The notes: a model not told the origin generated them from the sequence alone. 32,575 nt of DNA from a virus (IMGVR_UViG_2711768076_000008); one strand, 5' to 3'. Shown: positions 1,062 through 10,730, counted from the first letter of the stretch. Made by a program: numbers and translations.

Positions 1062-1700
1062 TTAAATATCTTGTTGAATTTTAAAGCATACGCCCAATAT
1101 GCAAGATAGATCATCCAGCATAATTGAAGGGTAGCGAGGATTCGTGGGGACTAAAAGAATATCCGGCCCTTCTATCTCCAGTTTACGAATGACAGGTGTT
1201 GTGGTCCCTTTGGGTAAGGCAAGGACAATATTTCCTGGTTGTACGGTTCGATCGGGATCAACAAAAACTGTTGAACCATTTGGGATGGAAACTCCCCCAC
1301 CAGATGTTGACATACTGTCACTCTCTAGAACAACTGCAAAGGTATTGACCGGGATTTCTCCGACAAGCTGCACACAAGAGGTTATTGAGGAATTTTTCAT
1401 ATAATCACTCCAGCTTGCTGCCTGCTGAAGTGATAGTAGCGGAACCGTTTTTATCGGCGGTAAAGATAGATCAAGCGAATCACCTGTATTTAACTCTCCT
1501 CCATTAAGAAGCCAATTTTCGTTTACTTTCAATATTTTTGCCAGTGAACTTATGTAACGCGAGGACGGCGCTCCTCCACCGTTCATCCATTGACTTACGG
1601 AGCCTTTTGATGCGCCAGTGCCATTGACAAGGTCTTTGCCTTTCAGGTTTAGCGCATGCATACGTTGGGTTATGCGTTCAGATATAGTTTGCTTGCTCAT
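1062..1700 (-). CDS. CI-like prophage repressor (HTH N-terminal domain, LexA/S24-type C-terminal domain)
   Basis: 212 aa. N-terminal HTH-like segment (GKDLVNGTGASKGSVSQWMNG) and a C-terminal region resembling the S24 autocleavage fold. Transcribed divergently from the Cro-like gene, as in a lambda immunity region. Confidence 0.8.
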   Translation of the reverse strand: MSKQTISERITQRMHALNLKGKDLVNGTGASKGSVSQWMNGGGAPSSRYISSLAKILKVNENWLLNGGELNTGDSLDLSLPPIKTVPLLSLQQAASWSDYMKNSSITSCVQLVGEIPVNTFAVVLESDSMSTSGGGVSIPNGSTVFVDPDRTVQPGNIVLALPKGTTTPVIRKLEIEGPDILLVPTNPRYPSIMLDDLSCILGVCFKIQQDI

Positions 1701-2514: not shown

Positions 2515-3585
2515 ATGGCTAACGCCTGGCTCAGATTATGGCATGACATGCCAAATGACCCTAAGTGGCGAACAATTGCCAGGGTGTCAGGGCAGCCAAT
2601 TGCAACAGTGATGGCAGTGTATATCCACCTCCTGGTGAGCGCGTCACGAAATGTCACGCGAGGTCACATTGATGTCACGACAGAAGATTTGGCAAGTGCG
2701 CTCGACGTGACAGAAGAGGTAATTGATTCAATTTTGCAGACGATGCAGGGGCGGGTACTTGATGGTGATTTAATCACTGGATGGGAAAAACGCCAGGTGC
2801 TGAAAGAGGACAACGGCAATATTTCGCAAACCGCAAAATCTCCGGCAGAGCGCAAGAGGGCGCAGCGAGAGAGGGAAAGAAAGCGGGAACAAAATGGCGA
2901 TTGTCACGGCGAGTCACGAAATGTCACGCACATGTCACGACGAGTCACGACAGATAAAGATACAGATAAAGATACAGATCAAGAAGATCAAAACACTATG
3001 GTCCATGGCGTAAAAAACGCCACGAACCAGGCAGGGGATGTTCAGACCGTCACTCCTGGCCAGCCCGCAGGCACGACACCGGAAGCCGATTCAGCGTATG
3101 CGCTGAAAGCCGATTCGGGCGCTGTGCAGCAGGTGATGACCGCAAGGCAGGAGCAATCACACCAACTTCAGCAGCCTGAAGCCGATTCCGCCATTCAGCG
3201 GGAAGCCGATCGGGTAGTCCCGGAAAACACCGGGCAGCCTGTGGGACGAGTGGATTATCCTGATGTGTTCGAACAGGTCTGGCGGGAATACCCGTTGCGT
3301 GCCGGGGCAAACCCGAAGAAATCCGCTTTCAGTGCCTGGAAAGCCAGATTACGCGAGGGGGTGCCACCAGAGGCCATGCTGGATGGCGTGAGGCGTTACG
3401 CAAGATACCTTGCGGCTACCGGGAAAACGGGAACGGAATTTGTTCAGCGAGCGACGACGTTTTTTGGACCGGACCGGAATTTTGAAAACCCCTGGCTGCT
3501 CCCGGTAAGCGGCACGAACAACCAGCGTTGTGTGAATCATATTTCTGAACCGGATAACGAAATTCCGCCGGGCTTCAGGGGGTAA
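2515..3585 (+). CDS. putative replication initiation protein (lambda O-like role) containing the origin iterons
   Basis: 356 aa ORF downstream of the cro/cII-like genes. Its coding sequence holds two clusters of GTCACG repeats at about 10-bp spacing plus an A/T-rich direct repeat, the classic layout of an iteron origin inside the initiator gene. SD AGAGG sits 5 nt upstream of the ATG. Confidence 0.6.
   Translation: MANAWLRLWHDMPNDPKWRTIARVSGQPIATVMAVYIHLLVSASRNVTRGHIDVTTEDLASALDVTEEVIDSILQTMQGRVLDGDLITGWEKRQVLKEDNGNISQTAKSPAERKRAQRERERKREQNGDCHGESRNVTHMSRRVTTDKDTDKDTDQEDQNTMVHGVKNATNQAGDVQTVTPGQPAGTTPEADSAYALKADSGAVQQVMTARQEQSHQLQQPEADSAIQREADRVVPENTGQPVGRVDYPDVFEQVWREYPLRAGANPKKSAFSAWKARLREGVPPEAMLDGVRRYARYLAATGKTGTEFVQRATTFFGPDRNFENPWLLPVSGTNNQRCVNHISEPDNEIPPGFRG
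2643..2679. repeat. iteron cluster 1 (4 x GTCACG/GTCACA, about 10-11 bp spacing)
   Basis: GTCACG at 2643, 2653 and 2674, with GTCACA at 2663; read directly from the sequence. Confidence 0.6.
2903..2990. repeat. iteron cluster 2 (5 x GTCACG, 10-11 bp spacing) followed by a tandem ACAGATAAAGAT repeat, A/T-rich: candidate ori
   Basis: GTCACG at 2903, 2913, 2923, 2934 and 2944, then cagataaagatacagataaagatacagatcaagaagatcaaaac. Confidence 0.6.
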
Positions 3586-3625: not shown

Positions 3626-4048
3626 GTGGCAAAAGTTTTTACACAAGAAGAGCGAGAAAAAATTAAAGGGCAGGTTGTTGAACTCGTACGCCAGAGTGGG
3701 CGTGAGACGTTACGGCAACTGGAAGTCAAGACAGGTGCGACAAGATATCTGATGAGCGTTCTCGCAAGAGAGCTGGTTGCCAGCGGCGATGTATACAACT
3801 CCGGCTACGGGTTATTCCCCTCTGAACAGGCGCGTAAGGACTGGCAAAACGCCCGCAAAAAACTCTCGAGGGCAAAGGTGAAGAAACCTGCTGTGGTTGA
3901 TCCGGACCTTATCTGGTCATCACCTGACGGAGAAATACGTCGCTACGACAGTCGCCTAAACATAATCTGTCGCGAGTGCCGGAAGAGTGAAGCTATGCAG
4001 CGTGTACTGGCTTTCTATCAGGGGAATTTTCAGGAGGCGGCGCAGTGA
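3626..4048 (+). CDS. hypothetical phage protein (140 aa)
   Basis: GTG start with an AGGAGG SD upstream; basic protein with no motif I recognise. Confidence 0.5.
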   Translation: MAKVFTQEEREKIKGQVVELVRQSGRETLRQLEVKTGATRYLMSVLARELVASGDVYNSGYGLFPSEQARKDWQNARKKLSRAKVKKPAVVDPDLIWSSPDGEIRRYDSRLNIICRECRKSEAMQRVLAFYQGNFQEAAQ

Positions 4049-4340: not shown

Positions 4341-4523
4341 ATGCGAAAGTTCAGAATAATTATTGAAACGGGAATAGCTGGTGGAGATTTTGAGGATGTA
4401 TTCGAAGTGGATGATGGTGCGACACCAGATGAAATACAGGACGAAGCAAAAGAAATTTTCTTTAACTACTGCAATTACTCATATCACGAAATAAAAGATG
4501 AGGAGGAAGAACAAAATGGCTGA
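4341..4523 (+). CDS. hypothetical small acidic protein (60 aa)
   Basis: ORF rich in D/E; AGGAGG SD at 4312-4317 separated from the ATG by a 6-bp hairpin with a GAAA loop. Confidence 0.45.
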   Translation: MRKFRIIIETGIAGGDFEDVFEVDDGATPDEIQDEAKEIFFNYCNYSYHEIKDEEEEQNG

Positions 4524-4692
4524 TTTTGGTTCAACTAAATACAACGTCAGTTTTGAAGAATGGCATGAACTGTTAATGGACTATGCAGAGTTACGCGGTG
4601 GAAGTGCCGCTGATGCTGAAGCATGGCGTTATGACTACGAAGCAGGAAAAACTCCGGTCGAAGCATATTGTGATGAGTGGGGCGATGAATGA
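4516..4692 (+). CDS. hypothetical small acidic protein (58 aa)
   Basis: Internal ATG at 4516 preceded by GAGGAGGAAG; the track ORF begins at 4498. Confidence 0.45.
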   Translation: MADFGSTKYNVSFEEWHELLMDYAELRGGSAADAEAWRYDYEAGKTPVEAYCDEWGDE

Positions 4693-5601: not shown

Positions 5602-5697
5602 TAAAAATGATGAGCCGAGACTGTATTTACGGGACGCTGAGAGAATACCATAGAAAAGCTTATCTAACTTAAGTAGAATTGCTGCGGGTGCTTGAGG

Positions 5698-5733
5698 CTA
5701 TCTGCCTCAGGCATGAACACCAAAGGCAGATAG
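5698..5733 (+). promoter_or_regulatory. stable stem-loop in the hok mRNA leader (10-bp perfect stem CTATCTGCCT/AGGCAGATAG)
   Basis: Perfect 10-bp inverted repeat with a 16-nt loop; a mutually exclusive 5-bp hairpin GAGGC/GCCTC (5694-5708) overlaps it. Confidence 0.5.
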
Positions 5734-5854
5734 AGAAAAGCCCCAGTTAACATTACGCGTCCTGCAAGACGCTTAACATTAATCTGAGGCTCAATCTATG
5801 AACGGCAAATCTAGGTTAGCCTCTTACGTGCCGAAAGGCAAGGAGAAGCAGGCT

Positions 5855-6010
5855 ATGAAGCAGCAAAAGGCGATGTTAATCGCCCTGATCGTCATCTGTT
5901 TAACCGTCATAGTGACGGCACTGGTAACGAGGAAAGACCTCTGCGAGGTACGAATCCGAACCGGCCAGACGGAGGTCGCTGTCTTCACAGTCTACGAACC
6001 TGAGGAGTAA
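5855..6010 (+). CDS. hok: Hok/Gef-family type I toxin (51 aa)
   Basis: MKQQKAMLIALIVICLTVIVTALVTRKDLCEVRIRTGQTEVAVFTVYEPEE matches the Hok/Gef fold and is close to the E. coli HokD/RelF sequence as I recall it. AAGGAG SD 9 nt upstream. The in-frame upstream extension (track ORF 5798..6010) is Mok-like. Confidence 0.85.
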   Translation: MKQQKAMLIALIVICLTVIVTALVTRKDLCEVRIRTGQTEVAVFTVYEPEE

Positions 6011-7804: not shown

Positions 7805-8182
7805 ATGACAGAATGCATAGAGTTTGTTTTGCCTTACCCGCCGACGGTGAACACCTACTGGCGCCGTCGTGGTAGTACATATTTTGTATCAAAAGCTGGT
7901 GAGCGTTATCGCCATGATGTGGAGCTTATTGTTCGCCAGCAGCGACTGAAATTAAATCTGTCCGGTAGGTTGGCAATCAGGATTATTGCAGAGCCACCGG
8001 ATAAGCGCCGCCGCGACCTGGACAATATCCTGAAGGCACCACTGGATGCGCTGACACATGCAGGACTGCTTATCGACGATGAGCAGTTTGACGAAATCAA
8101 TATAGTGCGCGGTTTGCCTGTTCCTGGTGGGCGACTGGGCGTGAATATTTTCGTAATAAGAGGTAGTAATGATGGTGCGTGA
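7805..8182 (+). CDS. rusA: RusA-family Holliday junction resolvase
   Basis: 125 aa with the conserved DKRRRDLDN segment; start overlaps the upstream stop. Confidence 0.85.
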   Translation: MTECIEFVLPYPPTVNTYWRRRGSTYFVSKAGERYRHDVELIVRQQRLKLNLSGRLAIRIIAEPPDKRRRDLDNILKAPLDALTHAGLLIDDEQFDEINIVRGLPVPGGRLGVNIFVIRGSNDGA

Positions 8183-8540
8183 TATTCAGATGGTTCTTGA
8201 GCGGTGGGGGGCATGGGCTGCGAGTGATAGCTCTGGGGTAGACTATTCACCTATAGCAGCTGGTTTTAAGGGGCTTATGCCGCAGATAAGTAAAACACGA
8301 ATTTCTTGTACAGACGATGACGCTCTTATCATTGAGAGCTGCCTTGCTTTACTAAAAAAGAAAAAACCGTACGAACATTCTCTGATTGTGGCTCATTACC
8401 TATACGGCATCTCGAAACGGAAGATTGCAAAGGCACGCAAAAAAGATGAGAAATTGATACGGATAGAGATCCAGATGGCAGAGGGCTTTATCGATGGCTG
8501 TCTCTCAATGCTTGATGTTCGTCTCGAGATGGAATTGTGA
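8169..8540 (+). CDS. putative late-gene antiterminator (Q-like)
   Basis: 123 aa ORF directly after rusA, the canonical Q position in lambdoid phages; the sequence style fits small Q-family antiterminators. The family call is from context and recollection only. Confidence 0.5.
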   Translation: MMVRDIQMVLERWGAWAASDSSGVDYSPIAAGFKGLMPQISKTRISCTDDDALIIESCLALLKKKKPYEHSLIVAHYLYGISKRKIAKARKKDEKLIRIEIQMAEGFIDGCLSMLDVRLEMEL

Positions 8541-10420: not shown

Positions 10421-10496
10421 GGCCCTTTAGCTCAGTGGTGAGAGCGAGCGACTCATAATCGCCAGGTCGCTGGTTCAAATCCAGCAAGGGCCACCA
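10421..10496 (+). tRNA. tRNA with CAU anticodon (Ile2/lysidine type or Met)
   Basis: 7-bp acceptor stem GGCCCTT/AAGGGCC, perfect T arm (GCTGG-TTCAAAT-CCAGC), anticodon loop CTCATAA, CCA end encoded. Resembles the E. coli ileX-type tRNA as I recall it. Confidence 0.8.
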
Positions 10497-10497
10497 A

Positions 10498-10574
10498 CCG
10501 CCACTAGCTCATCAGGAAAGAGCGTCAACCCTTTAAGTTGAGTGTGCGAGGTTCGAGTCCCCGGTGGCGGTCCA
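10498..10574 (+). tRNA. tRNA-like gene, anticodon ambiguous (loop CCTTTAA reads UUU by position but has C at position 33)
   Basis: Acceptor stem CCGCCAC/GTGGCGG, D stem GCTC/GAGC, anticodon stem TCAAC/GTTGA, T stem with one A-C mismatch, CCA encoded. The arms resemble a tRNA-Arg(UCU) scaffold with an altered loop. Confidence 0.55.
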
Positions 10575-10576
10575 GT

Positions 10577-10652
<76 letters not shown>

Positions 10653-10655
10653 TAT

Positions 10656-10730
<75 letters not shown>

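Follow-up and report, generated by a model that had tools for sequence, protein, structure and literature searches.

The stretch of viral DNA IMGVR_UViG_2711768076_000008 (32,575 nucleotides, here called the window) is that of a lambdoid (pro)phage. It carries a gene for a replication initiator of 356 amino acids (2515..3585, plus strand), and inside this one open reading frame stand two clusters of the direct repeat GTCACG, an A/T-rich tract and a palindrome. We consider it likely that the segment 2643–3029 is the theta-replication origin of the phage, lodged within the gene of its own initiator, because the repeats are clustered and periodic beyond chance, their DNA is under selection, their layout is conserved family-wide and an unstable A/T-rich tract adjoins them. 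An earlier reading of the window from its sequence alone (the sequence-only reading) had proposed an origin within the initiator gene; the comparative data, in which layout and spacing are kept across homologues, argue in its favour. The principle of an embedded origin is well known, while for the origin of this family, with its characteristic two-part layout, the searchable literature gave no description.

Two iteron clusters, an A/T-rich tract and a hairpin

Cluster 1 (2643..2679, plus strand) consists of GTCACG, GTCACG, GTCACA and GTCACG, which start at 2643, 2653, 2663 and 2674, at intervals of 10, 10 and 11 bp. Cluster 2 (2903..2949, plus strand) consists of five GTCACG at 2903, 2913, 2923, 2934 and 2944, at intervals of 10, 10, 11 and 10 bp. 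The sequence-only reading had thus been right about the 10–11 bp spacing and about the location of every repeat within the initiator frame; eight of the copies that it listed are GTCACG, the one at 2663 being GTCACA. Its direct copies stand, but it overlooked a single inverted copy on the minus strand (2706..2711, CGTGAC in the plus strand), 27 bp 3' of cluster 1. Cluster 1 lies some 260 bp upstream of cluster 2 (about 230–270 bp apart; 229 bp from the last start of the one to the first start of the other).

It is the local density of the motif that is out of the ordinary. The total of GTCACG in the window is unremarkable (22 against 15.7 expected, a count reached in 5 of 100 shuffles), and we rejected a window-wide enrichment; local clustering alone is significant. 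Eight plus-strand GTCACG fall within 310 nt, whereas 300 dinucleotide shuffles gave mostly one or two and at most four, the latter once. Five GTCACG in 52 nt form the densest hexamer repeat of the whole window; in 100 shuffles the corresponding maximum was three in 91 and four in 2. No further cluster of the motif occurs elsewhere in the window. DnaA boxes are common in or near the origins of plasmids and absent from that of lambda; between 2600 and 3050 no match to TTATNCACA was found with one mismatch or fewer.

Cluster 2 directly adjoins the A/T-rich tract (2950..2999), which is 72% A+T and, on the top strand, 70% purine, and which is a candidate DNA unwinding element. A tandem repeat in A/T-rich DNA had been noticed here before, and Tandem Repeats Finder confirms it: ACAGATAAAGAT is repeated 2.9 times at 2950–2984 with 95% matches, in a region (2940–2999) where the G+C content is 27.5–35%. 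The least stable 40-mer of the initiator gene starts at 2954. Its free energy (dG) of −43.4, compared with a gene mean of −57.4 (standard deviation 3.9), lies 3.6 standard deviations from that mean and places it in the top 0.27% of the window for low stability. The tract encodes the acidic linker TDKDTDKDTDQEDQ of the protein. Among otherwise near-identical Escherichia coli prophage copies (loci L085–L164) the 12-bp ACAGATAAAGAT unit occurs in 1–5 copies, always in frame, so that a change of copy number alters the length of the unwinding tract and of the acidic linker (TDKD repeats) together. The scan of IMG/VR gave solely identical E. coli copies, which are informative on population variation and not on divergence.

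Directly 3' of the tract follows an imperfect palindrome of 13 pairs, TGGTCCATGGCGT-AAAAA-ACGCCACGAACCA (2999..3029). Perfect stems of 6 bp or more with loops of 3–5 nt, located 15–95 nt past the last iteron, are present in 23 of 62 homologous loci (37%), compared with 326 of 4537 control windows (7%; odds ratio 7.6, p = 3e-11). Across the family the hairpins enriched behind the tract are GC-rich, with loops of 3–5 nt.

Conservation of the layout and selection on the DNA

How far is this layout kept among relatives? A scan of one genome per species yielded 80 loci from hosts that include Enterobacterales, Pseudomonas, Bordetella, Acidovorax, Janthinobacterium and sphingomonads, among others; the phage records Pseudomonas phi1, Aeromonas pAEv1818, a metagenomic phage and Ralstonia phage Firinga were added. 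A hexamer was counted as periodic if it showed at least two successive spacings of 10 or 11 bp within the first 650 nt of the gene. Periodic hexamers were found in 63 of the 76 homologous loci; of 515 control blocks taken from these loci, 2 contained them. The spacing within the family is 10 bp in 247 cases and 11 bp in 59. At 53 loci the same motif forms two clusters, near +130 and near +350–450 from the start codon, and the GTCACG version of this layout recurs in Pseudomonas, Aeromonas, Bordetella and other hosts. Two separated clusters had been thought less usual than a single array. This holds in relation to lambda; within the family two clusters are the norm (53 of the 64 informative loci).

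The motif itself is specific to the lineage: GTCACG, (C)GAACG(C), GCAACG, GTAACG or GTGACG, with ACG(C) as the common part. Both clusters of any one locus nevertheless always carry the matching motif. A motif that switches by lineage yet matches within the locus suggests a single cognate binding protein that moves together with its locus. The 45 nt past the last copy of cluster 2 are richer in A+T than the gene at 57 of 60 loci, by 20 points on average, and have a mean purine fraction of 0.71 on the coding strand. In many homologues inverted copies of the motif occur at the equivalent position. The sequence-only reading had made conservation of the repeat spacing among homologous genes a test of itself, and both spacing and layout prove to be kept even where motif, protein sequence and synonymous sites no longer agree.

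Within these limits the number of repeats varies. Close relatives have 3–5 copies in cluster 2 with the core unchanged, and among the E. coli prophage copies the iteron cores are invariant. Two extra iterons in cluster 1 (21 bp, seven codons, TCHGVSL) are found in Escherichia albertii (L006, +129..+181) and many O157 prophages, as well as in the proteins P0057, P0078, P0089 and P0094. Repeat number changes in pairs of 10 + 11 bp that preserve the frame. Conserved helical phasing between the two clusters was considered and rejected: among close relatives cluster 1 is fixed at +129, and cluster 2 starts at +379, +387–389, +398 or +407.

Are these repeats of DNA or of peptide? The iterons start in codon phases 3, 1, 2 and 1 in cluster 1, and 2, 3, 1, 3 and 1 in cluster 2, the nine copies encoding Ser-Arg, Val-Thr or x-His-x. 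Since all three phases are occupied, the repeats are DNA repeats and not peptide repeats. We then compared the codons of 22 GTCACG-bearing homologues, whose nucleotide identity to the window is about 65% over the first 130 codons, by scoring how often pairs of sequences that share a residue use the same codon for it (codon-pair identity). For the eight motif codons of four- to sixfold degeneracy this identity averages 0.96; for the 46 other such codons the mean is 0.29 and the maximum 0.56 (Mann–Whitney p = 4e-6). In cluster 1, S44 is TCA in 21 of 22 homologues, V47 (GTC), T48 (ACG), G50 (GGT) and V54 (GTC) are invariant in all 22, and T55 is ACG in 21 of 22. V65, in the inverted copy, is GTG in all 19 homologues with valine there. 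On the other hand R49, whose third base falls in the spacer between iterons, is free (CGA 9, CGC 7, CGT 5, CGG 1; codon-pair identity 0.29). Because the codons of the motif hold constant and the spacer codon, like the other degenerate codons, is free to vary, we conclude from these alignments that purifying selection acts on the iteron DNA sequence itself. With at least three direct repeats in helical phase and under selection, the arrays are of the iteron type.

Two circular 50.9-kb 'plasmids' from clinical isolates of Pseudomonas aeruginosa (CP137943.1, our locus L167, and CP124671.1) are phi1-like phage genomes. Both carry a homologous initiator and iteron module together with a gene for a DnaB-like helicase; they are phage genomes recovered as episomes. 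These phi1-type 'plasmids' bear circumstantially on autonomous replication.

The initiator, its partners and the rival explanations

What kind of protein would bind these sites? The initiator comprises an N-terminal winged helix (amino acids 1 to about 95), a basic helix (about 110–127), an acidic linker and a small helical C-terminal domain. Its N-terminal 130 residues, the winged helix and the basic helix, model confidently (predicted local distance difference test score, pLDDT, of 83), and at the C-terminus lies a small bundle of helices that bears only a weak resemblance to the C-terminal domains of DnaD. The initiator matches no Pfam family at E ≤ 0.01, the lambda O family included. Its best PHROG match is phrog_3729, 'replication initiation protein', which it matches end to end; the 'replisome organizer' groups phrog_4880 and phrog_5968 also match (E = 7e-6 and 1e-4), and the NCBI name of its cluster is 'phage replisome organizer'. 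Compared with PF09681, the Pfam family of replisome-organizer N-terminal domains, the N-terminal domain of the initiator scores 16.5 bits (E = 0.0085; cutoff 23.3), with profile positions 1–119 of 121 aligned, and 6 of 48 relatives match that family at E ≤ 1. As modelled, the N-terminal domain is a winged helix of the DnaD N-terminal type, and fold and profile matches together indicate that the initiator is a winged-helix replisome-organizer or DnaD-like protein, as are SPP1 G38P and DnaD, and not a homologue of lambda O. Homology to O, suggested by the label 'DNA replication protein O' that annotators gave in some phage records of GenBank, was rejected, since Pfam and PHROG give it no support.

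Cluster 1 encodes amino acids 43–55, the loop and beta-1 between two helices of the winged-helix domain; cluster 2 and the A/T-rich tract encode the junction of the basic helix with the acidic linker. The gene is a mosaic. The N-terminal domain and its repeats are joined to at least three different C-terminal modules, and the partner downstream varies: a DnaB-like helicase, a DnaC-like loader, or none. This combination of one N-terminal domain with varying C-terminal modules and partners is modular in the manner of lambda O. In Shigella phage 75/02 Stx the C-terminal module found in the window is preceded by an unrelated N-terminal domain, and the initiator gene of that phage has no GTCACG array.

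That Shigella phage gene has repeats of its own: AGGGGCT(T/C), two direct and two inverted, about 250 bp apart (L166 2078–2099 and 2331–2351). They are followed by an A-rich tract and by a palindrome identical to that of the window (L166 2412–2442). L166 may show the same two-part layout in another family; its four copies are not significant alone.

Amino acids 43–55 read SRNVTRGHxDVT where the iteron is GTCACG, NATERGR where it is GAACGC and TATQ.NADATRGN where it is GCAACG, and this loop is the sole part of the domain that differs systematically between iteron classes. It is conceivable, if improbable, that cluster 1 encodes the loop that reads the variable first three bases of the site, the binding site thereby encoding its own reader. 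If that were true, a change in the repeat would alter site and reader jointly, which would supply an inherent way of acquiring new origin specificities and of escaping incompatibility.

If the initiator opens the origin, how is the helicase loaded? The sequence-only reading had noted that no DnaC- or P-like loader follows, and indeed the initiator is followed by the DUF977/Ren-like gene, with no match to a helicase or loader anywhere from there up to the Q-like gene. The last codons of the initiator (3544..3582, plus strand) encode the 13-residue tail SEPDNEIPPGFRG (amino acids 344–356), which is all but identical to the last residues of E. coli DnaT, SEPDNHIPPGFRG. In a phmmer search of the PDB the DnaT chains 6aep, 2ru8 and 9zbt were matched through the last 21–24 or so residues only. 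Full-length similarity to DnaT was not found: the NCBIfam equivalog PRK02854 gives 19.3 bits against a cutoff of 201, and residues 333–356 alone match. Within the family a DnaC-like loader lies directly downstream at 4 of 8 loci with a 'P.GF' tail, compared with 3 of 65 without it (Fisher p = 0.002). This tail was never found with a DnaB-like helicase gene in the family; such genes accompany a different tail, 'NFxK.LEGKY...AA'. The tails look like partner-specific recruitment peptides, and we infer from this pattern that the DnaT-like tail is directed at DnaC, or at DnaB–DnaC. Since the phage has no loader or helicase of its own and its tail is of the type that goes with DnaC-like loaders, it probably uses the DnaC and DnaB of its host. 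The dnaT gene of E. coli immediately precedes dnaC in the same operon, and the way in which DnaT recruits DnaB/DnaC was an open question in a 2026 structural study of the preprimosome (PMC13377028).

A mechanism may be proposed along these lines. The N-terminal winged helix of the initiator would bind the short asymmetric sites GTCACG(A/C). A spacing of one helical turn would align the bound initiators on one face of the DNA and would favour a cooperative array on the five sites of cluster 2, with cluster 1 (four sites and the inverted copy) probably joining or modulating the same nucleoprotein complex; by analogy with two-cluster systems, cluster 1 could be an enhancer or a negative control element. 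The resulting strain, together with supercoiling and transcription from the early rightward promoter, would melt the purine-asymmetric A/T-rich tract of about 50 bp at 2950–2999. The C-terminal domain would then bring in the replicative helicase, most likely by recruiting the DnaC–DnaB of the host.

Several points weigh against an origin of this kind. In 11 of 64 informative homologues cluster 1 is absent and cluster 2 alone is present; given this absence in about a sixth, the role of cluster 1 in initiation is uncertain. Among close relatives the distance between the clusters shifts in steps of 9–10 bp, so that strict helical phasing is not kept. The match of the N-terminal domain to PF09681 falls under the Pfam threshold. 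Mutual information between motif class and alignment columns yielded no residues that read the variable part of the motif; the search was uninformative, its top columns being iteron-encoded or lineage-specific linker indels. The searchable literature holds no report of binding, melting or origin activity for members of the family. Finally, the homologous loci are phylogenetically related and their counts are not independent events, although simple inheritance is argued against by the saturation of the synonymous sites.

Might the repeats, then, be sites of the initiator that serve regulation? This is the main rival: initiator bound in the 5' part of its own gene would shut off transcription or translation (autorepression), or the clusters would pair with one another ('handcuffing') to restrict initiation, and the true origin would lie elsewhere or, in a milder form, cluster 2 and the A/T-rich tract would be the origin and cluster 1 its negative control. 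An accessory cluster 1 would fit the homologues that lack it and keep cluster 2, and extra iteron clusters lying outside the minimal origin are known negative regulators, both in iteron plasmids and on chromosome II of Vibrio (PMC3401445). But cluster 2 is always joined to the least stable, A/T-rich, strand-asymmetric tract, and often then to a palindrome, which is the anatomy of an origin and not of an operator. Moreover, the arrays lie 130–430 nt into the gene, far downstream of the promoter region, and the window has no other cluster of the motif. We regard this explanation as unlikely.

The comparative data largely exclude two others. It is very improbable that the repeats merely hitch-hike in the initiator gene as sites of some other protein, either a host factor or the winged-helix protein encoded by the DUF977/Ren-like gene. 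The DUF977 protein does have weak matches to DNA-binding proteins (phrog_2391), yet the same GTCACG layout is found in hosts with another gene downstream, be it that of a DnaB-like helicase, of a DnaC-like loader or of something different. Changes of the motif follow the lineage of the N-terminal domain, and the motif is absent from Shigella phage 75/02 Stx, where the same C-terminal module and DUF977 neighbourhood go with a different N-terminal domain. Least credible of all is that the repeats have no function as DNA, and stem from a peptide repeat or from slippage of recent date in a linker of low complexity. The ACAGATAAAGAT tract does behave as if prone to slippage, its copy number varying among E. 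coli prophages, and cluster 2 sits in a variable linker. The iterons, however, occupy every reading phase, encoding SR, VT and xHx; their codons are invariant where other synonymous sites are saturated, and motif, 10/11-bp period and paired clusters are kept from one class of Proteobacteria to another. The codon phases and the invariance at synonymous sites led us to reject the peptide repeat or slippage artefact, and an origin within the initiator gene remains the preferred reading.

Phage setting and comparison with known origins

The initiator gene stands in the early rightward operon, behind cro and cII. An S24/helix-turn-helix cI-like repressor gene (1062–1700, minus strand) is followed by a cro-like open reading frame and a cII/YdaT-like one (1946–2443), which lie upstream of the initiator gene. 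Downstream comes the DUF977/Ren-like (LygF) gene (3626..4048, plus strand; Pfam PF06163, E = 4e-28; phrog_142, 'Ren-like exclusion protein'), and 3' of it small open reading frames, hok/sok, a DUF968/HNH gene, RusA and a Q-like antiterminator (8169–8540). Four transfer RNA (tRNA) genes, lysis genes and lambda-like morphogenesis genes complete the series. DNA 98–99.9% identical to the window is present in sequenced E. coli phages, e.g. vB_EcoS-640R1, Tritos and Evi.

Other features of this region may be recorded here. The hok/sok toxin–antitoxin locus comprises the sok RNA (5686–5860; Rfam RF01794, 111.7 bits) and, overlapping it, the Hok/gef reading frame (5798–6010; PF01848, E = 6e-22). The four tRNA genes stand in a row at 10421–10727, between the Q-like antiterminator and the lysis genes; in Shiga toxin (Stx) phages, tRNAs and the toxin genes sit between Q and the lysis genes. 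Within a small open reading frame (4498–4692) GAAGCA occurs three times with an exact spacing of 21 bp (4618, 4639 and 4660; stretch 4618–4665).

The searchable literature on iterons, replisome organizers and GTCACG contains no description of this origin, and the papers on the 'Eru' replication regions of Stx phages contain none of origins or repeats. The initiator is nonetheless very common in E. coli and Shigella prophages, one 90% cluster having 5786 member sequences, and relatives extend across the Gamma-, Beta- and Alphaproteobacteria. Their comparative anatomy offers an experimental system: the putative origin is compact (about 390 bp), its 6–7 bp site comes in five natural specificity classes, and copy number varies naturally. 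Each type of tail goes with one type of helicase partner, DnaT-like 'PPGF' with DnaC-type loaders and 'NFxK.LEGKY' with DnaB-like helicases, and the DnaT-like tail may help to explain the handover from DnaT to DnaB/DnaC, the question raised by the preprimosome structure (PMC13377028). The repeats would mark the origin for prophage annotation and for the building of phage-derived replicons, and would predict replication incompatibility groups among co-resident prophages.

How does this arrangement compare with that of lambda? The sites of lambda are 18 bp long (about 18–19), have internal dyad symmetry, are bound by dimers and form a single array of four. Those of the window have an asymmetric core of 6–7 bp with a period of 10–11 bp, in arrays of four and five, and there are two clusters 260 bp apart instead of one. 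Both the lambda origin and the proposed one lie within the initiator gene, where its N-terminal, DNA-binding domain meets the linker; in both, the array of initiator sites has on one side about 40–50 bp of A/T-rich DNA that encodes a dispensable linker. Both initiators are modular, origin-specific in the N-terminal part and partner-specific in the C-terminal part, and both systems lack DnaA boxes and belong to an early rightward operon after cro and cII. The protein of the window, however, is unrelated to O (no match to the O family of Pfam), and no P-like gene lies downstream. The claim that the window follows the same principle as the lambda origin within O is supported for the embedded iterons with an adjacent A/T-rich tract, the lambda origin having four iterons and a 39-bp high-AT region inside O (PMC6022878), with the qualification that the initiator is no O homologue.

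In Bacillus phage SPP1, oriL is a 356-bp element of repeats plus an unwinding element in gene 38 and is sufficient for origin activity (PMC5737612, PMC6316719). The window resembles it in having an initiator of the organizer type whose binding repeats (the 'AB boxes' of SPP1) and A/T-rich unwinding element lie inside its own gene, a likeness that for the window is one of sequence anatomy. SPP1 differs in having its own loader G39P and helicase G40P, as well as a second origin, oriR, elsewhere, none of which the window has; the host phylum differs too. With the dnaT–dnaC operon related phages share a gene order, placing the tailed initiator directly upstream of a DnaC-like loader gene.

Two separated clusters of one initiator repeat, one of them at the melting site, are familiar from P4 (ori and crr), P1 (incC and incA), F and RK2. 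The distant cluster is a required enhancer in P4 (crr) and a negative control element in the iteron plasmids. The window likewise has two separated clusters, one of which adjoins the candidate melting site. In the window, unlike these systems, both clusters lie inside the coding sequence of the initiator and only about 230–270 bp apart, and the initiators are unrelated, P4 alpha being a primase–helicase and the plasmid Rep proteins tandem winged-helix proteins. What is distinctive here is a short asymmetric site repeated at every helical turn, together with a second cluster in the coding sequence of the DNA-binding domain.

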